Of a stretch of 56,646 bases of DNA, positions 361 to 56,646 are shown in pieces. Position numbers and translations under genes: made by a program. The notes beneath the pieces are model-generated. The model was not told the origin of the DNA and made no database searches. It worked only from the letters and a program-made list of their open reading frames with translations. This stretch comes from a virus (taxonomy: Duplodnaviria > Caudoviricetes): positions 1 to 56,646 of the IMG/VR virus record IMGVR_UViG_3300042934_000556. One strand, written 5' to 3'. The stretch's first letter is position 1; every line of letters begins with the position of its first letter.

Positions 361-624
361 CTACGAGACGGACGCGAAGGGCTTCCAGTTCTCGGTCACT
401 CTGATGTGGAGGCCCGAAACGTTCTCGGTGATGATCTCCAGAATTGCGTCTTCGATGTCCGCATCCTGAAGTTCTTCTGGAAGTTCGTCGGACGTCCTGG
501 TCACCCGCGCTAGTAGGGCAAGGGAGTGGTGGCCCTGTTCCAGGTCATACTGGAGCCACTCATCCCAATGGGTGAAAGGGTTGTAAGGATTGTCGATGGT
601 GGTGAGCATGTGGTTCTCGCTCAT
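361..624 (-). CDS. Hypothetical acidic protein, translationally coupled to the RNA polymerase gene
   Basis: 87-aa ORF with ATGA overlap to the RNAP stop; motif LTTIDNPYNPF. Confidence 0.75.
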   Translation of the reverse strand: MSENHMLTTIDNPYNPFTHWDEWLQYDLEQGHHSLALLARVTRTSDELPEELQDADIEDAILEIITENVSGLHIRVTENWKPFASVS

Positions 625-3404
625 TCGCCACCTCCACTCAGGCCAGCCTTGAGAGTGGACACCGGGACACCGAGCTGGTCGGCTACCTCGGCAAGGGTGT
701 ACTTGTCACCACGAAGAAGCAGCATGGCCCTGTTCTTGAGGGCAGCGCTCATGACTGGCTTCTCTCTTGGCGTGGCCAGTTCCTTGATCTTTTCTACATC
801 GGTGTTGTCGAGAATCTGCTTCAAGACGTTGTTGCTGACGGCGCCAGCCTGGATCGCTTCCCACTCACGTGGTTCGATCGTGATCTTGTCCTTGCCAGCC
901 TGAAGTCTCATGCGAGCCTCAGCGAGAGCCTTCGACTTGAGCTTCTTCTGCTCGGCTTCCTCCATCTCAGGGTGCGACTCAAGCTTTCGCTTGTAGATGG
1001 CGTTTGCTACGACCTGGGCCTGTCGTTCACGGGGGGCGTTCATGAGTGCCAGGGTCAGCTTGTCCTTGAGCATCTGGACTTCCTTGGCATACACCTTTGC
1101 CGCAGAGGGGGAGCGCTCGATACCCTTGGTCTTGACAAGCTCCTTGCGAGCATCGTTAGCCAGGGACTTCAACCTGTTCGAGTGATCAGCGTAGATCACC
1201 TCGATGGGCTTGCGCTTCTCCGAGACAAGGTCATGAGCGTCGTCCGTCTCAGCAAGCTTTGTGGTCTTGACCATCTTAGGCTTGCCGGGGACGTACTCCT
1301 TACCCGTTTCCACCCACACAAGCTTGCCTGTTTCAGGATCGATCGGACCGCCATCCTTGGCTTTCCGAAGTTCCCTATCGAGAACCCGCTTCTGAGAAGT
1401 GGCCCGAGAGATGATGGTTGAAGCACCACCATCGGCCTGACCAGCAGGCTTGGGCTGATACTTCGACACCAAGGCAGGGATACCGTTGTCGATCGCCGAT
1501 TGCTTGTAATTGAGCTTGTGCTTCTCGGCATCGATGATGACCATGGAATGTCGGACTGCGCGAGCAAGCTCGTTGTCCGTGGCCCCATGAATCGTCATGT
1601 CGGTGATGAGGTTGGAGATCTTCCCCATCTCGGTACCCTTAGCTTTGGGGTTGGCCTTCTCGCCTTCGGCGAACTCGACCTTCTTTGTCTTGGCGTTGTA
1701 CGTGCCTCCGCCCAGAACTCGCATACCATCGTAGCCAGGGTACGCCGACTGAGGATCGAATCCCTTGAGACCCTCGAGTGGCGGACGGGACTTGACCTTT
1801 CCGTGGTTGTTCGGAATGACCAGAACCGTATCACCGTCGAAGTCAGCACCCGACAAGCGCTCTGCCACAGAGTGATGGATACCTACTGCGTCAGGAGCAT
1901 TGCCGAGAAGCTTATTCGCCTGAGGGTGGCGGTTGTTCACAATGAGTTCGGGGATCTCGAAGAGACCTCCGTGCGGGAAGCGAACAAGCGCTACTCGGTC
2001 ACCGTTGTCCAGGGTGGGTGCGTAGATCTCTCGAGGACTCATCGAGTTGATCGGCAGTATGACCTTGGTCGCCTGACGAGGAAGGTGTGCAGCCTTCAGA
2101 TGGACAGCCGACGAATCTGTTGAATCAGCGAACTTCTCCAACAGATGTGCCTTTACGGCATCGTTGGTGAGACTCATGATGGTGTCGAACTCGCTCTTCT
2201 TGGTCTCGTACGTGATGTCGAGTTGGTCCTTGGCGAGCGTCGGCTTCTGCTTGGACAGCATCTGAGATGACAGGCTCTTAGACCATTCATCCCAGTTACC
2301 TTCCTTGTTCACGATGTTCATCGCGGACTCGACGATCTTGTTGCCGTCCTTGTCGCGCATCTCAGTGCCGTCAGGGTTCTTGCGGTAGATCTGGTCATCG
2401 ATGACGGCTCCGAACGGGTCGTCCTCCATCACCTTGCCAGTGTTCTTGTCCCGCTTCATCTCCTTCATGGCGTCGAGCTTGTTGCCCGTGTTCTTCTTGT
2501 TGGTGTTGAACACGAGGTCTACGCCAGGCGGCATGTCGTCGTTGTACATCGCCATACCTTTGAGGTAATGCGTGCCATCGACAGCGATGCGAACCTGTGC
2601 ATAGTTCGACTTTCCAAGCGATACGTCGGGGACCCCGCGACGAACGTAGATGACACCGTCGGCGTCGGTTCCGCCTTCTTCAGCGTAACGGACTTTGACC
2701 CTCTTGGAGTCGATCGAGATCGGAGGACGGATACCGTCGTAGGTGCGACCGCCATCCTTCGACTTGACGAGGATCTGCTGGATCTGATCCCGATTGTCGT
2801 TGACCTCTTTCCAAGGGACTTCAGGACCCGCCAACACCTTCAAGGTCGTGAACTTGCCCGTACCGAGCTGTTCCACCTTGATGTAGTGCATCTTGTAGCC
2901 CTCGTCCTCGAGGAGCTTACGAGCGGCCCTGAGCTTCTCCTTGCTGATGTTCAGGTGAAGCTCGACACCAGCGCCGACGTCGATGTACTTCTTCTTGGCA
3001 ACCTGGTCGCGGAGCATGTCCGCAGTCGACTCGAGGATACTGTTCTCTTCAGCGGCGCCCGGCCTGATGAGCGTCCGGAACGTGGATTCAGGGACACCCA
3101 TCTTCTTGGCTGCAGCGACATTGGAGAGGCCTCGCTCCTTGAGTTGGTTGGCTCGAGCGATGTCAGCGGCCTTTCGGGCTCGCTTGGCCATGGCGGTGGT
3201 GTCACGCAGTTGGGTGGTAGTCATACCGAACCCTTCCGCGATGTCCTTCTCCTTGAGCTCCTGTCGCTTCAGGTCTGCAACCATGGACTGGAAGGTACCT
3301 GCACGCTCGTAAGGCGTCTCACCGGAACCCCAGGGGTAGCGGCCCGACTTGCGTCGGATGCCGTAGTGAACGAGAGCATCACGCTCTTCTGCTTCGATGT
3401 TCAA
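621..3404 (-). CDS. Single-subunit two-barrel (YonO/RdRP-like) RNA polymerase with N- and C-terminal HTH-like segments
   Basis: Catalytic LSGADFDGD, upstream RFPH, plus DADG and LKG motifs; HTH-like SNVAAAKKMGVPESTFR and TLAEVADQLGVPVSTLK; N-terminal LVHYG motif. Confidence 0.8.
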   Translation of the reverse strand: MNIEAEERDALVHYGIRRKSGRYPWGSGETPYERAGTFQSMVADLKRQELKEKDIAEGFGMTTTQLRDTTAMAKRARKAADIARANQLKERGLSNVAAAKKMGVPESTFRTLIRPGAAEENSILESTADMLRDQVAKKKYIDVGAGVELHLNISKEKLRAARKLLEDEGYKMHYIKVEQLGTGKFTTLKVLAGPEVPWKEVNDNRDQIQQILVKSKDGGRTYDGIRPPISIDSKRVKVRYAEEGGTDADGVIYVRRGVPDVSLGKSNYAQVRIAVDGTHYLKGMAMYNDDMPPGVDLVFNTNKKNTGNKLDAMKEMKRDKNTGKVMEDDPFGAVIDDQIYRKNPDGTEMRDKDGNKIVESAMNIVNKEGNWDEWSKSLSSQMLSKQKPTLAKDQLDITYETKKSEFDTIMSLTNDAVKAHLLEKFADSTDSSAVHLKAAHLPRQATKVILPINSMSPREIYAPTLDNGDRVALVRFPHGGLFEIPELIVNNRHPQANKLLGNAPDAVGIHHSVAERLSGADFDGDTVLVIPNNHGKVKSRPPLEGLKGFDPQSAYPGYDGMRVLGGGTYNAKTKKVEFAEGEKANPKAKGTEMGKISNLITDMTIHGATDNELARAVRHSMVIIDAEKHKLNYKQSAIDNGIPALVSKYQPKPAGQADGGASTIISRATSQKRVLDRELRKAKDGGPIDPETGKLVWVETGKEYVPGKPKMVKTTKLAETDDAHDLVSEKRKPIEVIYADHSNRLKSLANDARKELVKTKGIERSPSAAKVYAKEVQMLKDKLTLALMNAPRERQAQVVANAIYKRKLESHPEMEEAEQKKLKSKALAEARMRLQAGKDKITIEPREWEAIQAGAVSNNVLKQILDNTDVEKIKELATPREKPVMSAALKNRAMLLLRGDKYTLAEVADQLGVPVSTLKAGLSGGGE

Positions 3405-4310: not shown

Positions 4311-4341
4311 CCTTCTATTAAAGCACATGTATTGATCACGG
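4311..4341 (-). promoter_or_regulatory. Divergent copy of the cassette promoter motif upstream of the nuclease-RNAP operon
   Basis: Minus strand CCGTGATCAATACATGTGCTTTAATAGAAGG aligns with TCGCA-N5-TACATG-N3-TATAATGAG. Confidence 0.45.
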
Positions 4342-4869: not shown

Positions 4870-4949
4870 GGGACCCCACCCTGATCACTTTCTTGGACGA
4901 ACTATGGTTCTTTGGAGCCGAGTCGGACATCTTGGAACGAATCCTCGCG

Positions 4950-5305
4950 CTGCCACTTTTGCGCGAAAACTCAAAAAAGTTTTTAAAACTTGCGTACACG
5001 GTATCTACTTTTTTTTTCGCGCATTATTTTTAAAAAAAAGTGGTAAAGTGGCAAGACTGGAAGAGCGAAACCCTCTGACCTGCAACGATGCCTGCGCGAA
5101 ACGGACAAAATAGGATGTCACTTTTGAATCAAAAGTGGCAGCCGAAGCCACAAAAGTGGCAGCGACCCATCCAAGAGCCGGGCGCCCCTGTCCGATTAGT
5201 GTGGCTATTCACACGTACGGCCGTAAGCGCCCGACTCACCCGGATGGCCCTATTCACTCGGGCCCCTTGCCACTTCTCTGCCACTTTTGACATCAGAAGT
5301 GGCAT
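4950..5305. other. Putative replication origin (AT-rich tracts plus AAGTGGCA iterons)
   Basis: Non-coding; poly-T/poly-A tracts at 4975-5040; AAGTGGCA/TGCCACTT repeated in both orientations. Confidence 0.55.
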
Positions 5306-5312
5306 GGGGTTT

Positions 5313-21654: not shown

Positions 21655-21690
21655 AAACCCAAACCCCTTGCGGGGTTGGGAAATGAGTGT
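21655..21690 (-). repeat. Cassette 3' hairpin repeat (copy a)
   Basis: aaacccaaaccccttgcggggttggg. Confidence 0.8.
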
Positions 21691-21842
21691 TACGCGGTCA
21701 GTTCCTTCTTGGGCTCTTCGTCAGGGCCAAAGTACTCGTCAGCCTGCTTGTTTATCACCTTTTCGATCTTCCCGAGAAGAACGGCGGCGAGTCCAGCAGC
21801 GAGGAATTTGACGATATCCTTCTTATTCTGGGGCTTGAGCAT
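21690..21842 (-). CDS. Cassette gene: 50-aa membrane peptide
   Basis: Lies between promoter and hairpin repeats; hydrophobic FLAAGLAAVLLG. Confidence 0.7.
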   Translation of the reverse strand: MLKPQNKKDIVKFLAAGLAAVLLGKIEKVINKQADEYFGPDEEPKKELTA

Positions 21843-21861
21843 GAGAGGGCGTCCAATCGTT

Positions 21862-21895
21862 AGGGGTCTCATTATAGGCCTTGTGAAATATGCGA
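21862..21895 (-). promoter_or_regulatory. Cassette promoter repeat
   Basis: TCGCATATTTCACAAGGCCTATAATGAGACCCCT. Confidence 0.8.
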
Positions 21896-21908
21896 GGAGC
21901 CTAGGGTG

Positions 21909-22049
21909 TCACTTTCTCGGTCCCGTGTTGAAGATTCGACATACGTGGAGTGAGACCTCCCACCGCGAACAACGCTTCTTTCTTGCGCACTCTTCGTGGG
22001 TCTTCTTGCATCGCGGGCAGCAATTCGACGGAATGGATTCCTTCTGCAT
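21909..22049 (-). CDS. 46-aa Cys-rich peptide (not in ORF track)
   Basis: MQKESIPSNCCPRCKKTHEECARKKRCSRWEVSLHVCRIFNTGPRK; GGAG RBS. Confidence 0.45.
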   Translation of the reverse strand: MQKESIPSNCCPRCKKTHEECARKKRCSRWEVSLHVCRIFNTGPRK

Positions 22050-22089
22050 TATGTCGCTCCGATACCGAGTACGAATATGGCGCGATGAG

Positions 22090-22207
22090 CGGGGCGCATG
22101 TTCCTCACGTTGGGGGAGTCATGAGCTACGGCTGTCGTTTGGTCGACCAGCATCCGGAATATGGTTTCGGGAGACCCCTCCCACCGTCGCCATTGCTGGT
22201 CGCCCCG
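22090..22207 (-). ncRNA. Candidate structured RNA
   Basis: Intergenic; nested stems CGGGGCG/CGCCCCG, CGACCAGCA/TGCTGGTCG, ATGG/CCAT, GGGAG/CTCCC. Confidence 0.4.
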
Positions 22208-22222
22208 TTCATCATTGTTGCG

Positions 22223-22747
22223 TCAGGCCGCGTTGCCCGTCTTTCGCTTCATGGCGATCATGGTGTGATGCTTCGACCACTGCATCGGGTTCTTGCCTGC
22301 GACCTTCATGAAGTCCTCGTCGGACATGGCGAGGAGCTCGTCGTCGTTGTACTGACGCTCCTGGGTTTCGCTCTCGGCGATCTTCTTCTGGATGTCGGCG
22401 GGCATGATCGAGATGAAGAACGAGAACCCGGCGTCGGGCATCTCGACCAAATCGGCGAAGAACGCCTCGTAGGCACCACACCCCTTAAAGCGTCGTATGA
22501 CACCCGCGTCCTTGATGATGAGGTCGTCCTCGCGGATGCCGACCGAGCGGAACAGCATCTCCTGCCAGAGGTCCAGCATCCGACGGCTGTCCTCGTTCTC
22601 GACGATCTCCTTGAGGTACGTGCCGGGGTCCTTCATGTGGGCCAGTTCCATCTCGGCCATGTCGGTCTTGCCGAGGGAGAAGTACCACTCGGACTGGACG
22701 TCGGTTCCGTCGGGGGTCTGGTGGCTGATGATCTTGCGGACGGGCAT
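22223..22747 (-). CDS. Hypothetical phage protein
   Basis: MPVRKIISHQTPDG...WYFSLGKTDMAEMEL. Confidence 0.75.
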   Translation of the reverse strand: MPVRKIISHQTPDGTDVQSEWYFSLGKTDMAEMELAHMKDPGTYLKEIVENEDSRRMLDLWQEMLFRSVGIREDDLIIKDAGVIRRFKGCGAYEAFFADLVEMPDAGFSFFISIMPADIQKKIAESETQERQYNDDELLAMSDEDFMKVAGKNPMQWSKHHTMIAMKRKTGNAA

Positions 22748-22839
22748 TGCTTTCTCGTTTCTCTTCGATTTAACAAGCGGAAGGGGCGGCACGCAGAATA
22801 TGACTTCCACGTACCGCCCCGACCTTCAACGGGTGTTGA

Positions 22840-23214
22840 TCAGGCGTTCTCGGCGAGCACCTGCTCGTTCTCGCCGGTGATGACCTGGAGGTCGACCTCG
22901 TCCTCGCTGAGGGTCTCCTCGTCGGCCTGCTTCGCGGCGAACTTGGCGAAGGCCACGGCGGCCAGGGCCACGGAGACGGCGACTCCGGCGACGACCTTCT
23001 TGTTCTCCTTGAGCTTCTCGGTCACGGAGACCAGGCGCTCCTTGAAGGACTTCTTGCCGCCCTCGATGACCTCCAGCTCCGGGGCCTCGGTGGTCTCCTC
23101 GATGACCTCCAGCTCGGAGGCCTTCTCGCTCTGCGCCGGGACGACCAGGTTCTCCTCGGCGGCCTGGGCGGCGACGGACTCGGCGGTGACCTTGGTGTTC
23201 TTGTTGTTCGACAT
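22840..23214 (-). CDS. Membrane protein with duplicated ELEVIE
   Basis: AAGGAG RBS; hydrophobic VVAGVAVSVALAAVAFA. Confidence 0.75.
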   Translation of the reverse strand: MSNNKNTKVTAESVAAQAAEENLVVPAQSEKASELEVIEETTEAPELEVIEGGKKSFKERLVSVTEKLKENKKVVAGVAVSVALAAVAFAKFAAKQADEETLSEDEVDLQVITGENEQVLAENA

Positions 23215-23315
23215 GCTCTTGGGCTCCTTCAGTTTCCGAAAATATCGTTCGGGTGGCTTGTGTGGTACTCGTACGCGGCGATCCAATATGGATTACCGCG
23301 AGGGCCCCAATCTCT

Positions 23316-24095
23316 TCAATAGAGCTGGGCGTACCTGTGATTCGGTCGGTTGACGAAGTCGATGGCGAGACACGGGACGTTGTTCTTCGTGAGCGCCGAC
23401 GTGTAGTTGAGTTCGAGCTTGTCGTTGGAGTCCCAGCCGAGGTCGTCGGAGGCGCCGATGGGCGTCAGACCCAGAAGGTGGTAGAACTCCGTCAACGACA
23501 GGTGTGTGCTGTTGATCAGCTCGTGGTTGAAGTCGTTCACGGCCTTACGAATCGTCTCCATGTCACTGACGAAATATCGATCCGACCACTTGTCCCAACA
23601 TAGGACGCTTCCCTGCTGAGCGGCGAGAGCGAGTACCGTCTGGCCCGGAGGGTTCGCTGTGATGCGGTCCTGGACGATCTCGTCGCGGATCGCCTGCTCC
23701 TTGTTCTTACCGACCTTCTTCAGCGTCTTCTCGCGGTACTCCTTGAAGCTCTTCTCGGCGAACGCGTAGGCCGATGCCATGGCAGCCGCCCGGCGCTCAC
23801 TCACGCGGTTGGCGCAGATGGTCGCCGTGACGGTCATGGCCAGGCAGGTCGCTGCCGGGATGTACAGCTTCCAGGTGAGCTCGGCCTTTCCCTTGAACGT
23901 GTTGAAGTGTTCGGCTTCCTCGGTGGTGGAGATCTCCACTTCCGCTTCTCCGAGAACCTTGGCGGCCTGGAAAGCTGCCTTGGCGGCCAAATATACGGAT
24001 GTGACAGCGCCAGAGACGCTTAGTGCGGTCAGAATCGCCGGAGAGTTGTTTGCGGCGACCTTACCTGCACGCTGGAACAGCGCGCTGAAGTCCAT
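23316..24095 (-). CDS. DUF6353-like phage protein
   Basis: NSPAILTAL, KLYIPA, LTEFYHLLGL, LGW motifs. Confidence 0.75.
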   Translation of the reverse strand: MDFSALFQRAGKVAANNSPAILTALSVSGAVTSVYLAAKAAFQAAKVLGEAEVEISTTEEAEHFNTFKGKAELTWKLYIPAATCLAMTVTATICANRVSERRAAAMASAYAFAEKSFKEYREKTLKKVGKNKEQAIRDEIVQDRITANPPGQTVLALAAQQGSVLCWDKWSDRYFVSDMETIRKAVNDFNHELINSTHLSLTEFYHLLGLTPIGASDDLGWDSNDKLELNYTSALTKNNVPCLAIDFVNRPNHRYAQLY

Positions 24096-24186
24096 GATTG
24101 AAGCTCCTGTCGTGTCGCCGTGTTGGCGATTCTGATGCGTGGTTTGGTTCTACTTCTCGTTCTTGGGGAGAGGGGTGATCAGATTC

Positions 24187-24561
24187 TTACGCATTGTCTC
24201 TCTCCTTCTTCGCTTCCTCGAAGCGCTCGTTCGCCTCGTCGGAGAACTCGTTCGAACCCGTGTTGTACTGGGCGTAGACGTCATCGTCACTGATGCGAAC
24301 GTGGCGGTAGAGCATCGACTCACCAGCCTCGAGTTCCTCCATCGTCGATGGGGGAACCGGAATTGTCGACCAGCCGTCGCCGTAGTGGTCTGCCTCGAAC
24401 TTTTCGAGTTCGTTCTTATACTTCACCGCGAGAGACGTGGCGACGACCGTCCCGACGACTCCGGCGATGGTCGGAATATGGCGCTTGAGCTGTCGCAGCC
24501 TCATCTTCAGAACCTCGCGCCGGAGCTGGTTCTTCGTCTTACCCGTCACTTCACCGAACAC
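24187..24561 (-). CDS. Membrane-anchored hypothetical protein
   Basis: IPTIAGVVGTVVATSLAV hydrophobic segment. Confidence 0.7.
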   Translation of the reverse strand: MFGEVTGKTKNQLRREVLKMRLRQLKRHIPTIAGVVGTVVATSLAVKYKNELEKFEADHYGDGWSTIPVPPSTMEELEAGESMLYRHVRISDDDVYAQYNTGSNEFSDEANERFEEAKKERDNA

Positions 24562-24586
24562 AGGGGGCAGCCCTTCTGAATATGGC

Positions 24587-24636
24587 GAAACCCAAACCCC
24601 ATGCGCGGGTGCGCTGAGGCGTGGGTCTTGAGGTCA
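24587..24636 (-). repeat. Cassette 3' hairpin repeat (copy b, with insertion)
   Basis: gaaacccaaaccccatgcgcggg...gggtcttgaggtca. Confidence 0.8.
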
Positions 24637-24828
24637 GTTCTCGTCTTCGGGGGTGTAGAACTCGTTGTAGAGGCCCTTCTCCTTGAGGAACTCGTCGTGC
24701 TGCTTCAGACCGATCTTCAGCAGTACCGCCGCGCCGGTGGCGGCAACGGTGGTGACTGCGAGGATCTTGGTCTTGTTCTCGACGATCTTGTCCTTGGCGG
24801 AGGTAAGGGCCTTCTTGGCGGCGTTCAT
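24634..24828 (-). CDS. Cassette gene: 64-aa membrane peptide
   Basis: MNAAKK...ILAVTTVAATGAAVLL...EDEN. Confidence 0.75.
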   Translation of the reverse strand: MNAAKKALTSAKDKIVENKTKILAVTTVAATGAAVLLKIGLKQHDEFLKEKGLYNEFYTPEDEN

Positions 24829-24853
24829 AACACGTCCAATCTGGTTAGAGGGT

Positions 24854-24887
24854 AGGGGTCTCATTATAGGACGTGTAATTCTTGCGA
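24854..24887 (-). promoter_or_regulatory. Cassette promoter repeat
   Basis: TCGCAAGAATTACACGTCCTATAATGAGACCCCT. Confidence 0.8.
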
Positions 24888-24900
24888 GGGTAGGTTAACC

Positions 24901-25098
24901 CTACGAACGCCTCGACTTTCCGTACGTGCTGCTCTTGATGCGACGGTTGACGTCCTTGGCGTAGGCCCGGCGGCCCTGGTAAGCGCCGATCGCGTTGATC
25001 ACCTTTCCCGCCGCCGCGAGCGCCACGGAAATGACTCCGATGACGGCTACCGGGTTGTTGTTGAACTCTTCCTTGAGCCGCTTCAGACCTTCGTTCAT
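24901..25098 (-). CDS. Small membrane protein
   Basis: NPVAVIGVISVALAAAG. Confidence 0.7.
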   Translation of the reverse strand: MNEGLKRLKEEFNNNPVAVIGVISVALAAAGKVINAIGAYQGRRAYAKDVNRRIKSSTYGKSRRS

Positions 25099-25289
25099 GC
25101 TTCACTCCCCTTGGAATATGACTTGACCGACTTCGCCAGTTGCCGCATGGCGATTCCGGTGGCGACCTTGAGACCCAGTACGACGACCAGGTTGATAACG
25201 ACACGTCGGAACGGAGGGTCCCAGAAGGGCTCGTTCTCGATAACTTCTTCCTCTTTAGGAAGTAGCGTCACCAGCTTTGGTGGTTCCAT
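25095..25289 (-). CDS. 64-aa membrane protein
   Basis: MEPPKL...VVINLVVVLGLKV; coupled at both ends. Confidence 0.6.
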   Translation of the reverse strand: MEPPKLVTLLPKEEEVIENEPFWDPPFRRVVINLVVVLGLKVATGIAMRQLAKSVKSYSKGSEA

Positions 25290-25381
25290 TACTTGTACCA
25301 CCAATCCCAGATCCATCCGGCCAGCTTTCCCGCGCAACACCCGATCGCCAAACAGGATATGATCGTAACTAGAATGTCCAC
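25289..25381 (-). CDS. 30-aa hydrophobic peptide (not in ORF track)
   Basis: AGGAGG RBS, GTG start; MDILVTIISCLAIGCCAGKLAGWIWDWWYK; TAATG overlap. Confidence 0.55.
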   Translation of the reverse strand: MDILVTIISCLAIGCCAGKLAGWIWDWWYK

Positions 25382-25399
25382 TAACTGTCCCTCCTAGGC

Positions 25400-25438
25400 G
25401 AAACCCAAACCCCTTGTGGGGGTTCGGGCTTGAGGTCA
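25400..25438 (-). repeat. Cassette 3' hairpin repeat (copy c)
   Basis: gaaacccaaaccccttgtgggggttcgggcttgaggtca. Confidence 0.85.
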
Positions 25439-25624
25439 GTTCTCGTTGGTGGTCTTCTTGGTCTTCTTGGCCTCCTTCTTCTCCAGGTATTTCGCGTAGG
25501 CGAGGCCGACCGCGAGGAATCCGGCAGTGGTGGCAGCCGACATAGCGGCGCCCACGGCGAATGCCTTGGCGATCTCCTTGCCGAAATTGATGTCCTGGGA
25601 CTCGGTGGAGGTGTTGTTGTCCAT
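25436..25624 (-). CDS. Cassette gene: 62-aa membrane peptide
   Basis: Hydrophobic core, Lys-rich tail ending NEN. Confidence 0.75.
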   Translation of the reverse strand: MDNNTSTESQDINFGKEIAKAFAVGAAMSAATTAGFLAVGLAYAKYLEKKEAKKTKKTTNEN

Positions 25625-25648
25625 GAGAGGTTTCCAATCTAAAGGTTA

Positions 25649-25681
25649 CGGGTCTCATTATAGAGCATGTAATTCTTGCGA
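25649..25681 (-). promoter_or_regulatory. Cassette promoter repeat
   Basis: TCGCAAGAATTACATGCTCTATAATGAGACCCG. Confidence 0.8.
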
Positions 25682-25720
25682 GTTTTGCCCAAAATACCCG
25701 CTCGGGAAATTTTGGAAAAC

Positions 25721-25760
25721 GAAACCCAAACCCCTTGTGGGGGTTCAGGCTTTGAGGTCA
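25721..25760 (-). repeat. Cassette 3' hairpin repeat (copy d)
   Basis: gaaacccaaaccccttgtgggggttcaggctttgaggtca. Confidence 0.85.
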
Positions 25761-26048
25761 GTTCTCGATGTTGGTGTTGTTCATGATGGAAAGGTAGTAG
25801 ACGTCGTCCATCTCGCTCTGCTGGACGATCAGGTCCTCGCGCTCCAGGAGCGCCTTCTTGTCGTCGCCGGTCACCTCCGGAAGGGGCTCGAACTCGACCT
25901 CCACCTCGGGCGCCTGGGCGGCGTTCTTGATGGAGTTGAGCACGAGCACCGTGGAGGCGGCGGCTGCGGTGAAGGCGATCACGCTGGGGGCGTAGGTCTT
26001 GATCTTCTGCTTGAGGGTGGCGAACTTCTCGTTCTTCTTCTCGTTCAT
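25758..26048 (-). CDS. Cassette gene: 96-aa membrane-anchored protein
   Basis: Basic N-terminus, hydrophobic helix, ends IEN. Confidence 0.75.
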   Translation of the reverse strand: MNEKKNEKFATLKQKIKTYAPSVIAFTAAAASTVLVLNSIKNAAQAPEVEVEFEPLPEVTGDDKKALLEREDLIVQQSEMDDVYYLSIMNNTNIEN

Positions 26049-26067
26049 GGTAAGTCCAATCTAGAGT

Positions 26068-26101
26068 AGGGGTCTCATTATAGGGCATGTAATTCTTGCG
26101 A
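26068..26101 (-). promoter_or_regulatory. Cassette promoter repeat
   Basis: TCGCAAGAATTACATGCCCTATAATGAGACCCCT. Confidence 0.8.
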
Positions 26102-26110
26102 GGACATGTC

Positions 26111-26147
26111 GAAACCCAAACCCCTTGTGGGGTCGGGTCTGAGGTCA
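26111..26147 (-). repeat. Cassette 3' hairpin repeat (copy e)
   Basis: gaaacccaaaccccttgtggggtcgggtctgaggtca. Confidence 0.85.
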
Positions 26148-26390
26148 ATCTTGGTCGGCGCTCTTGGTTTTCTTGACGGCGATCTGACTCACGGTGTCGA
26201 TGGCCTTGACGGCGGCGTAGACTCCGATCGCGGCGAGAGTGACATGCTTCACCAACGTCTTTCCGTGGTCGGCGATGGCCTTGACGGTTTCGGGGTGAAG
26301 AATATGGGTCTCTTCGGGAGCGGAGTCGTCAGCCTTCTTGTTCTTGGGCTTGTCGACGAACGTGAGCTGAACGGCCTTCTTCTTGAACAT
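26145..26390 (-). CDS. Cassette gene: 81-aa protein
   Basis: MFKKKAV...VTLAAIGVYAAV. Confidence 0.75.
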   Translation of the reverse strand: MFKKKAVQLTFVDKPKNKKADDSAPEETHILHPETVKAIADHGKTLVKHVTLAAIGVYAAVKAIDTVSQIAVKKTKSADQD

Positions 26391-26407
26391 AGCGGGGTCC
26401 AATCGGT

Positions 26408-26441
26408 AGGGGTCTCATTATAGGCCGTGTAATATGTGCGA
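26408..26441 (-). promoter_or_regulatory. Cassette promoter repeat
   Basis: TCGCACATATTACACGGCCTATAATGAGACCCCT. Confidence 0.8.
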
Positions 26442-26448
26442 AGGCCTG

Positions 26449-26679
26449 TCAGAACAGCTCGTCGTCGACGATCTGCTTCCAGAAAATGACCGACTCTACC
26501 CGACGTTTCGGGTCGTCCTCGTACATCCGCATCTGATCTTCGAATGCCTTGTGGTACGTACGGATGCGAGCGTTCTTGTCGAAGCTTCGCTGGTACCTCC
26601 GCTGAGCAAGAACTGTCCCTATTGCCGATGACGCTACGGCTCCAACCACAACGAGTGCGAAGAAGAGCTTTCCGTTCAT
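26449..26679 (-). CDS. 76-aa membrane-anchored protein lying between cassettes
   Basis: GGGGAGGG RBS; LFFALVVVGAVASSAIG. Confidence 0.7.
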   Translation of the reverse strand: MNGKLFFALVVVGAVASSAIGTVLAQRRYQRSFDKNARIRTYHKAFEDQMRMYEDDPKRRVESVIFWKQIVDDELF

Positions 26680-26714
26680 GGTTCCCTCCCCGAAATATGA
26701 TGACCCCTGGCGGC

Positions 26715-26753
26715 GAAACCCAAACCCCATGTAGGGGTCCGGGCTTGAGATTA
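26715..26753 (-). repeat. Cassette 3' hairpin repeat (copy f)
   Basis: gaaacccaaaccccatgtaggggtccgggcttgagatta. Confidence 0.85.
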
Positions 26754-26969
26754 GTTCTCGATCTTGTCCAATGTCAGCTTAAGCTTGAAGCCTTCGCGCT
26801 TCACATTGAAGTGGTAGAGGCCGTCTTCAACGCTTTCGTTAATCCCACCCTGATTCTGCAGTACGCTATAAAGCCACTGGTTGCGAGGGGTGAGGTTTCC
26901 GATAGCGTCCCAACGACCGTTACCAACGATAATGGTGAGGGGCGTGAGGTCCTTCTTCTTGCGGAACAT
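26751..26969 (-). CDS. Cassette gene: 72-aa protein
   Basis: Lies between repeats; ends KIEN. Confidence 0.7.
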   Translation of the reverse strand: MFRKKKDLTPLTIIVGNGRWDAIGNLTPRNQWLYSVLQNQGGINESVEDGLYHFNVKREGFKLKLTLDKIEN

Positions 26970-26984
26970 AGTGATCCAATCGGT

Positions 26985-27018
26985 AGGGGTCTCACTATAG
27001 GACGTGTAATCCTTGCGA
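26985..27018 (-). promoter_or_regulatory. Cassette promoter repeat
   Basis: TCGCAAGGATTACACGTCCTATAGTGAGACCCCT. Confidence 0.8.
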
Positions 27019-27057
27019 GACCTCTAGAGAATCACTCTCATTTTGACCCCGAGCGGC

Positions 27058-27095
27058 GAAACCCAAACCCCATGCGGGGTAGGGTCTTGAGCTCA
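27058..27095 (-). repeat. Cassette 3' hairpin repeat (copy g)
   Basis: gaaacccaaaccccatgcggggtagggtcttgagctca. Confidence 0.85.
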
Positions 27096-27293
27096 CTCGT
27101 CAAACGTACCGTTGTCGACGAAGTAGTCCACGGCCACTGCGATCATCTCTTCGACACTCGTCACCTGTCCGGCCTTGAGCTTTTCGCTGAGGTGGGCGAT
27201 GTAGCCATTCACCATAGCGAACTGCTCGAGGTCTAGGTAACGGAGTCCGATGAGCTGAATCGAAGTGATCTCGAGGATCTGCTTGTGCAGCAT
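27093..27293 (-). CDS. Cassette gene: 66-aa protein
   Basis: MLHKQILE... after GGAAGG RBS. Confidence 0.7.
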   Translation of the reverse strand: MLHKQILEITSIQLIGLRYLDLEQFAMVNGYIAHLSEKLKAGQVTSVEEMIAVAVDYFVDNGTFDE

Positions 27294-27310
27294 TGGTAAG
27301 CCTTCCGTTA

Positions 27311-27343
27311 AGGGTCTCATTATAGGCCTTGTAAAGCTTGCGA
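27311..27343 (-). promoter_or_regulatory. Cassette promoter repeat
   Basis: TCGCAAGCTTTACAAGGCCTATAATGAGACCCT. Confidence 0.8.
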
Positions 27344-27358
27344 GACCCCTAACGGAGT

Positions 27359-27397
27359 AAACCCAAACCCCTTGCGGGGGTCTGGACTTTGAGGTCA
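27359..27397 (-). repeat. Cassette 3' hairpin repeat (copy h)
   Basis: aaacccaaaccccttgcgggggtctggactttgaggtca. Confidence 0.85.
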
Positions 27398-27700
27398 GTT
27401 CTCGTCGGGGACGGGGGTCATGATGAACATTGGTTCGTCGCGGCCGTTGTAGAAAGTGACGGAGTGACCGGTCTCGCGGACGTGCTTGGCAGCATCGTTG
27501 ACTTCTCGGATCTTCGCATCGGCGGCCTCCACGTCCTTGAGCGTCTCAGCGATGTCCTCTCGGACTTCGTCGATGCGCTTGATGACGTGGAGACAGAACG
27601 CTGCGGTGGCGAGGCAGCCAGCGACGATGGCAGCATCTACTGCGATCTGGTTCTCCTGGTACTTCTTCTTGGCCTTCTCGAACTTCTGCTTGATGTTCAT
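27395..27700 (-). CDS. Cassette gene: 101-aa membrane-anchored protein
   Basis: Basic N-terminus, hydrophobic helix, ends PDEN. Confidence 0.75.
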   Translation of the reverse strand: MNIKQKFEKAKKKYQENQIAVDAAIVAGCLATAAFCLHVIKRIDEVREDIAETLKDVEAADAKIREVNDAAKHVRETGHSVTFYNGRDEPMFIMTPVPDEN

Positions 27701-27721
27701 GAGCGGCTGTTCCTTTCGTTA

Positions 27722-27754
27722 AGGGTCTCACTATAGGGCGTGTAAAATATGCGA
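27722..27754 (-). promoter_or_regulatory. Cassette promoter repeat
   Basis: TCGCATATTTTACACGCCCTATAGTGAGACCCT. Confidence 0.8.
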
Positions 27755-27762
27755 CCCTCGAC

Positions 27763-27800
27763 GAAACCCAAACCCCATGTGGGGTCCGGGCTGAAACTCA
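27763..27800 (-). repeat. Cassette 3' hairpin repeat (copy i)
   Basis: gaaacccaaaccccatgtggggtccgggctgaaactca. Confidence 0.85.
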
Positions 27801-28016
27801 GTCCTTCTTGGTCTCAGATATGCTCTCGCACTGCGCGACGGTCTGGTCGATGGTCTCGAAGGCTCTGTCCCACCCAGCCGTGAACCCGTCGATGAACTGC
27901 ATACGGCCGAGGACTTCGAGGTCTTCAGCCTGATGACGGTTCTTCTTCCGGTTCAGGATATAGGGGGTGCAGATTCCTGCGATGACACCGAGCAGAGCAG
28001 CGATAGCGATGGTCAT
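27798..28016 (-). CDS. Cassette gene: 72-aa membrane-anchored protein
   Basis: MTIAIAALLGVIAGIC N-terminal anchor. Confidence 0.75.
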   Translation of the reverse strand: MTIAIAALLGVIAGICTPYILNRKKNRHQAEDLEVLGRMQFIDGFTAGWDRAFETIDQTVAQCESISETKKD

Positions 28017-28037
28017 AGCTAACAGCCTTTCTAGGTA

Positions 28038-28070
28038 AGGGTCTCATTATAGGCCTTGTAATATGTGCGA
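28038..28070 (-). promoter_or_regulatory. Cassette promoter repeat
   Basis: TCGCACATATTACAAGGCCTATAATGAGACCCT. Confidence 0.8.
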
Positions 28071-28106
28071 TACCGGCGTAAAGGGTCCCAGAGAGAGCTA
28101 TTAGGC

Positions 28107-28151
28107 AAAAAACAGACGGCGTGTAAACCTTGTTAGGGTCTACACGCCGTC
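28107..28151 (-). terminator. Intrinsic terminator
   Basis: GACGGCGTGTAGACC...GGTTTACACGCCGTC followed by TGTTTTTT. Confidence 0.8.
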
Positions 28152-28194
28152 CATCCGGTCGTCCTGGTTGGGACGCTTTCTCAGTTGATGAAGG

Positions 28195-28482
28195 TCACTT
28201 CTTGACGAGGCTGAATGCCTTCGTGGCGATCACGTGGGTGTGCTCGTAGCTGATGACGATGAGGATGCCAGCGAGAGACGACAGCGCAGCGACTACCTGG
28301 TCCTTGCTCACCTTCTGCTTGGAATCGACTTCCTGCAGCTTGTAGAGCTTGGCCAACTGGTCGCTTACGCGGTTGTACTCATCGCTGTCCTCCGGCGTGT
28401 TAGACAGCTTCTTGAACAGTCGCGCGATCTCCTTCTGGAGGTCGTTCGGCTCCGACGTCTTGAACTTCAGCATCTTGGGCAA
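28195..28482 (-). CDS. Cassette gene: membrane-associated hypothetical protein
   Basis: GGAAGGA RBS; SLAGILIVISYE..HVI.TKA. Confidence 0.75.
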   Translation of the reverse strand: MPKMLKFKTSEPNDLQKEIARLFKKLSNTPEDSDEYNRVSDQLAKLYKLQEVDSKQKVSKDQVVAALSSLAGILIVISYEHTHVIATKAFSLVKK

Positions 28483-28497
28483 AGCAGTTCCTTCCGT

Positions 28498-28531
28498 AGG
28501 GGTCTCACTATAGGGCGTGTAAAATATGCGA
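28498..28531 (-). promoter_or_regulatory. Cassette promoter repeat
   Basis: TCGCATATTTTACACGCCCTATAGTGAGACCCCT. Confidence 0.8.
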
Positions 28532-56174: not shown

Positions 56175-56499
56175 ACGGTTGCTGACCGGAATAAGCCCGC
56201 ATGGCGCTGATCGCGTTAGTGTACAGTTCCTCGATCCGCTGCTGAGACTCGTAGGCCTCGCGCTTGACCTTGAGTAGTTCGTTCTCGTGTCTGAGACGCT
56301 CCTGCTCGAGGATCTCTCGGGTCGAACCTAGCTTCAGGAAATGGGTGATCACCTGAGCTGAGGCTGTACCATCTTCCAACTGCTGTTCAGCGAGCCTGGC
56401 GGCCTTAGCCACGAGCTGACTCTCCCGAGCCTCGGGAGTTGCGGCCGGTTTATGTCGACTAGGTCTCGGTTGCGGATCACTTTGTCGGCGAGCAGGCAC
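56155..56499 (-). CDS. Probable terminase small subunit
   Basis: First gene of the packaging operon; GAAAGGAG RBS before GTG at 56499 (alternative TTG at 56508); function inferred from position. Confidence 0.55.
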   Translation of the reverse strand: MPARRQSDPQPRPSRHKPAATPEARESQLVAKAARLAEQQLEDGTASAQVITHFLKLGSTREILEQERLRHENELLKVKREAYESQQRIEELYTNAISAMRAYSGQQPFEQPDE

Positions 56500-56646
56500 G
56501 GTTTTCAACTCCTTTCGGTTGGGTTCATGTCAAGAAAGTTAGACTCCTGGGACCTCAGCCCTAGGTTTGTTTGACCAAAAGTTCCCCCGGGGCTTTCTGG
56601 GGGTGTAAAACTTCTGCCGAAAAGTTCCCCCGGAGGAAAAATATGG
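56471..56646. repeat. Terminal direct repeat / circular overlap, right copy
   Basis: Matches 1-176 with one mismatch. Confidence 0.95.

Follow-up and report, generated by a model that had tools for sequence, protein, structure and literature searches.

Why should a phage place each of ten small, mutually dissimilar genes behind a copy of the same repeat, and which polymerase would read that repeat? The question is raised by positions 21655-28531 of the tailed-phage record IMGVR_UViG_3300042934_000556 (56,646 nucleotides (nt), all of which were analysed and are here called the window). In this locus, copies of a promoter-like repeat each precede one small open reading frame (ORF), and copies of a hairpin repeat follow most of these ORFs. 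An earlier reading of this DNA, made without database searches (the sequence-only reading), saw here a recombinase-free, shufflable array of self-contained expression units, similar to the promoter/stem-loop (PeSL) cassettes of T4-type phages. We find that the array is a real feature, PeSL-like in both architecture and evolutionary behaviour, and sequence comparisons among relatives support the loss, gain and replacement of cassettes at the repeats. The explanation that best covers the whole, which we consider somewhat better than an even bet, is that the array is a hyperplastic set of expression slots in a lytic cluster BI phage.

All ten promoter copies that had been claimed were recovered: an IUPAC pattern matches each of them on the minus strand only, with 0 mismatches, and matches nothing in 100 shuffles. 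With a weight matrix derived from 98 distinct copies (15 genomes), the ten score 50.8-60.2 bits, whereas the best other site in the window reaches -4.6 bits. An independent repeat finder also recovers both the promoter and the hairpin families, and within the window both are confined to 21655-28531. The repeat is 31-38 nt long, with the consensus TCGCA-N5-TTACA-N5-TATAAT-GAGACCCCTA (~38 nt). Its TCGCA and TTACA boxes lie 14 and 5 nt 5' of the hexamer, respectively, and are spaced 9-10 nt apart; GAGACCCCTA follows the hexamer, and a start codon is found ~20-35 nt past each copy (Table 1). The description as ten single-gene cassettes holds for the ten promoter-led units, but between these lie nine more ORFs that have no promoter repeat.

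Nine of the units have the order promoter–ORF–hairpin, as had been claimed, and cassette 1 closes with a different, canonical terminator. The 13-nt hairpin arm GGGGTTTGGGTTT occurs exactly nine times, always on the minus strand and within 1 nt of the places first reported. Its single plus-strand match (2 mismatches; 0.94 expected by chance) is the opposite arm of a hairpin. All nine copies fold (-15.3 to -26 kcal/mol, z -2.6 to -4.4), forming hairpins of 10-13 bp with G-U pairs that begin just past or inside the last codons. The repeat extends into the ORF ends (CGAGAAC-TGA-CCTCAA, with GAGAAC-stop in 5 of 9), and the next promoter comes 10-41 nt after five of the hairpins. Hairpin copies from 13 genomes were folded one by one; an ungapped alignment was out of register on the 5' arm and so was not used for counting pairs. 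The sense RNA is more stable than the antisense in each of 58 distinct copies (mean -18.1 vs -14.2 kcal/mol), and G-U pairs are present in 56 of them. The arms co-vary in the distant copies of Kardashian and Scap1, and in cluster BI1 the 3' arm GGGGTTTGGGTTT is invariant while the 5' arm varies via G-U pairing. Given the sense-biased folding and the co-varying arms, the hairpin repeat is, judged from these folds, an RNA-level element of the sense transcript. A scan of the window against Rfam gave 0 matches.

Does this element end transcription? Its place suggests so, as the hairpins stand directly past stop codons and directly ahead of the next promoter, and the equivalent place in cassette 1 is taken by a terminator that fits the intrinsic definition (a GC-rich hairpin with a free U-run). 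It is position that points to termination at the shared repeat, because the U's are usually paired: only three follow the hairpins, mostly base-paired, and 2 of 9 copies pass a terminator-like scan. These counts weigh against termination, and the hairpins may stabilise or process RNA instead. The repeat would then not terminate but, on longer transcripts arising from read-through, stabilise 3' ends or mark sites of RNase processing, with GGGGTTTGGGTTT as a recognition site for a protein or RNase. The invariant 3' arm in BI1 and the promoter-less genes that come after some hairpins would suit such a role; set against the terminator-like placement, we consider it unlikely. Termination is the reading retained below, and the architecture of promoter, ORF and hairpin fits the notion of self-contained expression units.

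Table 1. Window coordinates of the array, its repeats and ORFs, and the proposed promoter reader (P, promoter repeat; T, hairpin repeat; c, promoter-led cassette ORF; aa, amino acids; SD, Shine-Dalgarno sequence)
Feature	Coordinates	Strand	Remarks
Whole array: 10 promoter-led units and 9 repeat-less ORFs	21655..28531	-	between lysis/tail and replication genes
P1	28501..28531	-	60.1 bits; identical to P3 over 31 nt
P2	28040..28070	-	pattern and weight matrix
P3	27724..27754	-	pattern and weight matrix
P4	27313..27343	-	variant heads a different gene in Rima, Maya, FidgetOrca, Hoshi
P5	26988..27018	-	pattern and weight matrix
P6	26411..26441	-	60.2 bits
P7	26071..26101	-	pattern and weight matrix
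P8	25651..25681	-	50.8 bits, lowest of ten
P9	24857..24887	-	pattern and weight matrix
P10	21865..21895	-	pattern and weight matrix
c1, 92 aa	28195..28473	-	phrog_5818; weak holin-like match
c2, 72 aa, N-terminal hydrophobic stretch	27798..28016	-	phrog_20510
c3, 101 aa	27395..27700	-	PHROG match weak only; dN/dS ~0.14
c4, 66 aa, without hydrophobic stretch	27093..27293	-	phrog_21911
c5, 72 aa, ORFan	26751..26969	-	no PHROG match
ORF of 76 aa, lacking both repeats; CATATT and SD 5' of ORF	26449..26679	-	phrog_19607
c6, 81 aa	26145..26390	-	phrog_6618
c7, 96 aa	25758..26048	-	phrog_21206
c8, 62 aa	25436..25624	-	phrog_20298
Three small overlapping/abutting ORFs (30, ~63, 65 aa), without promoter repeat	24901..25381	-	middle start uncertain
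c9, 64 aa	24634..24828	-	phrog_12653; Gordonia phage Vardy has a weak relative (35% identity)
Five ORFs without promoter repeat: 124; 259 (DUF6353); 124; 174 (Phage_TAC_17); 46 aa (Cys-rich)	21909..24561	-	
c10, 50 aa, hydrophobic stretch	21690..21842	-	ORF and hydropathy
Canonical terminator-like hairpin and U-run, ends cassette 1, unlike shared repeat	28104..28155	-	-31 kcal/mol, z -6.96
T2	27765..27792	-	motif match and folding
T3	27359..27389	-	motif match and folding
T4	27059..27087	-	motif match and folding
T5	26716..26746	-	motif match and folding
T6	26109..26142	-	motif match and folding
T7	25722..25752	-	motif match and folding
T8	25401..25431	-	motif match and folding
T9, longer branched form	24588..24628	-	motif match and folding
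T10, ninth repeat copy, then UUUUU	21658..21680	-	motif match and folding
Two-barrel single-subunit RNA polymerase, 927 aa, proposed promoter reader	621..3404	-	ADFDGD loop at residues 520-525

The window termini are repeated (1-176 = 56471-56646; 176 nt, one mismatch), and the first bases of the window's minus strand are those of the left end of Streptomyces phage Rima (genome left end CCATATT, with CGCCCGCCT before it). The window is therefore, by its sequence, the complete genome of a cluster BI (Rimavirus-like) Streptomyces siphophage, reverse-complemented and spanning the cohesive-end junction; the completeness given in IMG/VR is 100%. A 7.2-kb query matches Streptomyces phage Psst4 (89% identity, 68% of the query covered), and Rima, Maya, DrGrey and other phages of the Rimavirus group match ~50% of it. 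Every long ORF is on the minus strand. In the order of the Rima annotation, genes for HNH, endolysin, terminase, head/tail and holin are followed by the small-gene array, the replication genes (a 1337-aa primase/polymerase, a helicase and nucleases) and, last, the gene for the 927-aa protein.

The homologous regions of nine relatives (Rima, Psst4, Psst2, Maya, DrGrey, HazuAndZazu, IceWarrior, FidgetOrca and Hoshi) each contain 9-13 promoter and 8-12 hairpin copies, and their gene content differs slot by slot. Cassette 3 is present in only two of the nine, DrGrey and HazuAndZazu; most relatives hold another gene in its slot, and these two hold both. Over ten genomes the c5 slot is occupied by five unrelated genes (c5 itself and four others in the relatives), and the slot following c7 by one of two alternatives. 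Unrelated genes sit in the same slot although the genome flanks are ~90% identical. Blocks of similarity between the window and a relative open at a hairpin together with the last codons and stop just past a promoter and its leader. Breakpoints had been predicted to fall in the repeats, and 12 of 26 distinct block ends lie in strict repeat zones that make up 13.7% of the array (binomial p 6e-5); of the other 14, seven are 1-20 nt outside a repeat zone and seven are in repeat-less parts.

Two features of these comparisons temper the conclusion. That block ends fall at repeats is partly to be expected, since it is the repeats that are conserved in the array, and gene order is nearly fully collinear. 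Reordering is rare: across nine genomes compared there is one change, a family that follows gene D in Psst4 and precedes it in Bing. 'Shuffling' therefore amounts to loss, gain and replacement of cassettes, and the free reordering that had also been proposed finds no support. Real recombination is indicated because whole cassette units are present or absent between relatives, the promoter variants in front of c4 and of its neighbour have changed places between the window and Rima-type phages, and synonymous divergence (dS) from a single partner ranges from 0.06 to 0.53 across neighbouring genes, a mosaic. The identity of P1 and P3 is found in the window only. Four runs of soil-metagenome DNA gave contigs that stop at identical promoter copies, and contig ends left loose at promoters and hairpins enter unlike sequence. 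The joints at repeats in these runs have sides of just 21-55 letters and are of an error-prone class; such contig breaks fit the presence of other phages with the same repeats. The process that we propose is ordinary homologous recombination between repeats of 30-75 nt, which would act both within one genome (deletion, conversion) and between co-infecting relatives.

Could the array instead have arisen chiefly through tandem copies of a single promoter–gene–hairpin unit, the coding part of which then diverged fast, so that relatives differ by divergence or simple deletion and not by exchange? Many products are indeed built alike (N-terminus rich in Lys, hydrophobic stretch rich in Ala, acidic tail with -EN at its end), the repeat enters the first and last codons of some ORFs, promoter variants mostly stay with their own gene, and the collinear order would be expected. 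However, paralogy among the cassette ORFs of the window is rejected at the BLASTP level (no match at E 1e-3), in line with the claim that the ORFs are mutually dissimilar. When ten array proteins (c1-c9 and the 76-aa ORF, without c10) were scanned against PHROGs, eight fell into eight separate families of unknown function, c3 gave a weak match and c5 none. The unrelated genes between ~90% identical flanks, the promoter variants swapped around c4 and the nine-fold difference in dS to one partner between neighbouring genes also speak for exchange, and we regard origin by duplication as improbable.

The machinery of exchange appears not to be site-specific. No tyrosine recombinase (PF00589) was matched in the record, while a control matched in 14 of 14 genomes; there was no match to serine recombinases (PF00239), and the annotation of Rima contains no integrase. 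The array was thus rightly called recombinase-free. Integron cassettes, the second analogy that had been offered, share the outward look of small unrelated genes in a row between hairpin-forming repeats, and that look is the whole of the resemblance. An IntI-type recombinase is missing from a 100% complete record, each cassette has its own promoter, whereas integron cassettes are promoterless, and the hairpins, unlike attC sites, are simple and more stable as sense RNA (a comparison made without an attC model). Integron-type mobility is refuted as far as the letters of this genome go, and we assign it almost no probability.

Is homologous exchange between repeated expression signals known elsewhere? 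The closest parallel is the hyperplastic region of T4-type myoviruses, where PeSL cassettes carry repeats of a stem-loop and a strong promoter among small non-essential ORFs, and where mini-circles have been demonstrated (Arbiol et al. 2010, PMC2839356). As in those phages, a composite of stem-loop and promoter is repeated among small ORFs (10 promoters and 9 hairpins here), the repeats are where close relatives differ by insertion, deletion or replacement, and a dedicated recombinase is absent. The PeSL cassettes of T4-type phages are reportedly also the subject of later work by Comeau et al. from 2014. The analogy holds for architecture and for turnover at repeats, but not for the promoter: those of PeSL cassettes are sigma-70-like, early and read by the host enzyme, whereas here the sigma-70 geometry is absent and the reader is more likely a phage polymerase. 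The two systems also have unrelated repeat sequences, virion types and host phyla, and mini-circles are a PeSL feature, whereas the present array is known from sequence.

Nearer relatives had already come to attention, a point that the sequence-only reading missed, as it missed that the promoter is probably read by a phage polymerase. The announcement of Gordonia phage Vardy, cluster DJ, reports 5 copies of a 50-bp intergenic motif with a possible role in controlling gene expression (PMC9671010). This is the same motif as the promoter repeat, and we find 8 copies; the text of the announcement available to us is silent on cassette turnover, a shared hairpin, a polymerase and other clusters. Arrays of small membrane-protein genes have been noted in clusters AM/AU, CC and DJ (Klyczek et al. 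2017, PMC5513430; PMC13313380), in the same place after the tail genes, with the same kind of product and in the same phage supercluster as here. As far as their text was available, both papers deal with the genes alone, and neither 'promoter' nor 'terminator' appears in PMC5513430. A literature search of main texts returned nothing that links the motif to a polymerase, and nothing on cassette turnover in cluster BI or on the shared hairpin. On this basis the cassette turnover at repeats, the shared hairpin and the candidate link between promoter and polymerase appear to be new, and the Vardy motif, the small membrane-gene arrays and the polymerase proposal were already known.

So, which enzyme reads the promoter? 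A two-hexamer sigma-70 scan passes 0 of the 10 copies: they have no -35 element at 16-18 nt and no TG extension, and the bases preceding the hexamer are (G/C)(C/T)C rather than TGN. In Bing, Kardashian and Scap1 the hexamer itself varies (TTTAAT, TACTAT, TGTAAT, TATGAT), and TCGCA and ATGAGACCCCTAC are constant there, the opposite of what would be expected of a host promoter defined by its -10 element alone. The -10 positions A2 and T6 are kept in all ten window copies, whereas TTTAAT, with T at hexamer position 2, breaks A2 in three otherwise intact copies (two in Bing and one in Kardashian). The TCGCA and TTACA boxes recur with the same spacing in the BI phages Bing, Kardashian and Scap1, in Gordonia phage Vardy and in Arthrobacter phage Tribby. 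The Vardy copies, TCGCA-N5-TTACA-N5-TATAATGAGACCCCTA, occupy a mid-genome region of small membrane-protein genes. Lactococcus phage P078, with a genome of 33% GC, has 10 copies of the core TTACAT(A/G)CCCTATAATGA(A/G)A, which keep the odd geometry and the CCC preceding TATAAT. All of these phages encode an RNA polymerase of the two-barrel kind with a helix-turn-helix domain at either end.

The motif is also largely a property of certain phages. A 45-nt promoter query matches 188 of 50,697 phage records, and the 927-aa protein, a predicted RNA polymerase, has counterparts in 250 phage records spanning two bacterial phyla. Compared by name group, the two sets occupy the same groups, with equal numbers of promoter and polymerase records for Gordonia (55/55), Streptomyces (54/54) and Rhodococcus (4/4). 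No fewer than 116 viral stretches contain a 22-base promoter pattern. Multiple copies are present in 105 of these (511 copies altogether, spaced by a median of 394 nt), and the BI hairpin arm is on the same strand as the pattern in 38 viral stretches and on the opposite strand in none. Among 185,579 species genomes, the 22-base pattern was found in 5 short contigs only. These contigs (L018-L022; loci of 3-8 kb) have 1-7 promoter-like copies each and are labelled as metagenome-assembled genomes of Acidobacteria, Scandinavium, Fervidobacterium and Marmoricola and as one Streptomyces assembly. They are probably fragments of phage arrays, mis-binned or co-assembled. Because of the non-sigma-70 geometry, the conservation across phages and the presence of promoter and polymerase in the same phage groups, we lean towards the repeat being the phage polymerase's own cognate promoter and not one of host type.

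A host promoter would account for part of the same evidence. The HrdB (sigma-A) holoenzyme would use TATAAT as a -10 element without a -35, TCGCA and TTACA would be sites for a regulator of the phage lineage, and GAGACC would belong to the leader; such a regulator could either activate, as T4 MotA does, or repress. A -35 element is often missing from actinobacterial promoters. All ten window copies have a perfect TATAAT or TATAGT hexamer, with the perfect TATAAT in most, and an operator-like inverted repeat, GTAGGGGTC ... GACCCCTAC, accompanies the promoter: an exact inverted match of at least 7 nt is found around 24 of 98 distinct copies vs 25 of 1960 shuffled controls. This inverted repeat, of at most 14 nt, flanks many promoter copies (for example 27343-27360 with 27305-27318, and L011:23000-23060 in Bing) and could be an operator, or a hairpin formed only in read-through RNA. 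The Vardy authors took the 50-bp motif for a sigma-70 -10 element (PMC9671010). Arguing the other way are the missing -35 and TG extension, TTTAAT in three otherwise intact copies, the odd geometry and CCC retained in a 33% GC Lactococcus phage, and the restriction of the motif to polymerase-bearing phage groups as opposed to host chromosomes. We consider a host promoter unlikely.

The perfect hexamers and the Vardy authors' interpretation are among the points that weigh against a cognate phage promoter, and there are others. The co-occurrence of motif and polymerase, compared by name group, can be explained by shared descent alone. Faecalibacterium phage FP_oengus has the polymerase and 0 motif copies in the 50 kb examined, as might be expected were the host enzyme the reader. 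Since the motif is limited to 7 kb of the window, direct targets of the polymerase would be few, and its gene lies far downstream. In Tribby a good promoter copy (L015:46031-46070) stands just 5' of the nuclease/polymerase operon, which would require either a virion-borne polymerase or reading by the host enzyme and so also suits a host promoter; the window has only a very weak promoter-like site (-4.6 bits) 5' of this operon, at 4341 on the minus strand. The starts, stops and timing of transcription are, moreover, all inferred from sequence, a search of sequencing runs having listed no RNA run that contains it.

What is the proposed reader? The ADFDGD loop of the 927-aa protein, a DxDGD metal-binding loop, is invariant in 43 of 43 aligned homologues, and Pfam places a helix-turn-helix (HTH) near residue 90 and a sigma-region-4-like HTH at residues 889-919. 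Against chains in the PDB the sequence gives chance matches only. Its AlphaFold model (predicted local distance difference test score 79) is matched by Foldseek to QDE-1 (E 2e-10), phage P32 gp64 (E 5.6e-7) and P74 gp62 (about 5e-7), and also to plant RDR2 and beta-prime subunits, with 27 matches at E <= 0.001 and TM-scores (structural similarity) of only ~0.3. The protein is accordingly modelled with a double-psi beta-barrel fold like that of QDE-1 and beta-prime. Its homologues in metagenomes number at least 7,996, and the polymerase of Lactococcus phage P078 is 36% identical to it.

Polymerase activity for the cluster BI protein was proposed from HHpred by Koert et al., who also noted the HTH at both ends (bioRxiv 10.1101/842583); the word 'promoter' occurs 0 times in the available text of that preprint. 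Related enzymes include the RNA polymerases of Thermus phages P32 (gp64) and P74 (gp62) (PDB 8f72, 8f5m) and YonO of SPbeta, whose promoter is stated to be undetermined (PMC5467207). The discussion of that paper ties the flap, lid, zipper and rudder of beta/beta-prime to hairpin-dependent pausing and termination (PMC5467207). The 927-aa protein shares with YonO and the P32 and P74 enzymes the DxDGD loop and the QDE-1-like fold. YonO is said to have no flap, lid, zipper or rudder elements. No promoter is assigned to the two-barrel family in the available text of the papers cited, whereas one is proposed here.

A single-subunit phage polymerase with its own promoter calls T7 to mind. As in T7, a conserved promoter of ~23-38 nt would run through the start, with a TATA just ahead of it and a conserved initial transcribed sequence reminiscent of the T7 CTATAG-GGAGA. 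Unlike in T7, the polymerase is of the two-barrel and not the right-hand kind, and the promoters are gathered in one array and do not head late operons.

If the cognate-promoter reading is followed through, each slot would consist of a promoter, a short leader with a ribosome-binding site, one small ORF and an RNA hairpin, and the repeats would start and stop transcription to give a strong monocistronic message per gene. The 927-aa polymerase (621-3404), and not the host sigma-A holoenzyme, would read the promoter. Its two HTH domains would bind the TCGCA and TTACA boxes, separated by one turn of the helix; melting would take place at TATAAT, and the start would fall in GAGACC. More tentatively, at a little under even odds, the 38-nt repeat may be the promoter of the HTH-fused two-barrel polymerase family as a whole, and the array a slot bank dedicated to that polymerase, in which unrelated genes for small membrane proteins, ORFans among them, would be swapped or even born.

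Were this so, it would be the first promoter for a widespread family of phage RNA polymerases whose prototype, YonO, has no defined one. Promoter recognition by a minimal two-barrel polymerase would become directly testable, and Streptomyces and other Actinobacteria could be given an orthogonal expression system. PeSL-style plasticity without a recombinase would have arisen independently in siphophages of Gram-positive hosts and would be common in soil viromes, given the number of viral stretches with the pattern. The fast-turning small membrane proteins and ORFans would be candidates for host take-over, exclusion and counter-defence, with lysis timing as a further conceivable role, and should the polymerase travel in the virion, the array genes would be the first expressed after injection. 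That the products have an early host take-over or anti-defence role, as was suggested at the outset, is a guess.

As for the genes themselves, dN/dS values (nonsynonymous over synonymous divergence) of 0.14-0.67 in the four cassette ORFs with equal-length orthologues indicate that the testable ORFs are real genes, some apparently under relaxed constraint. Pfam gave no match for the cassette proteins tested. One strongly hydrophobic stretch is present in 8 of the 10 promoter-led ORFs (Kyte-Doolittle maximum >= 1.5 over 17 residues, a hydropathy window and not a transmembrane predictor). In c1 the stretch is near the C-terminus, and this protein has relatives in 5 of 5 distant phages compared. 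Cassette 6 has direct matches in Bing, Kardashian and Scap1, and a Tribby ORF is joined to it by clustering only. For c5, no relative was found among 5.8 billion protein cluster representatives. For c9, a recent horizontal transfer between phages of Streptomyces and of Gordonia was rejected, the identity being just 35%. Among the ORFs without a promoter repeat, all three at 24901-25381 carry a hydrophobic stretch, each of the five at 21909-24561 has CATATT in its upstream gap, and the DUF6353 and Phage_TAC_17 genes are retained in the distant relatives compared.

Two types of leader precede the cassette ORFs. In six of the ten (c5-c10; e.g. 26975-26985 and 26398-26408), AGATTGGA stands 7-12 nt before the ATG and there is no GGAGG-like Shine-Dalgarno sequence; the remaining four have GAAAGGA or GGAAGGA. 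Both types are also found in Bing, Kardashian, Scap1 and Vardy.

Outside the array, a 440-bp gap between the helicase and HNH genes (4870-5312, minus strand) contains several copies of GCCACTTTTG and CAAAAGTGGCA in either orientation, along with long A/T runs, and has the look of an iteron-bearing replication origin. The pentamer ATATT, as (C/G)ATATT(C/T), has 101-102 copies on the gene strand of the whole window vs 4 of its complement, and other pentamers of composition A2T3 occur 2-20 times. Its copies are distributed genome-wide, in coding DNA in all three frames (24/22/18) and also just 5' of many ribosome-binding sites (for example, on the minus strand, at 26699, 24584, 23290, 22802, 22163, 22079, 29394, 47778, 7819 and 7518). 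A similar strand bias is seen in Bing (100:2), Kardashian (56:3), Scap1 (24:0) and Gordonia phage Vardy (146:8), and in FP_oengus as GATATTT (42:1); AT-rich Tribby and P078 do not show it. ATATT might mark where primase starts in one-strand lagging synthesis, act as a Chi-like signal, or represent a second class of promoter or an RNA processing site.

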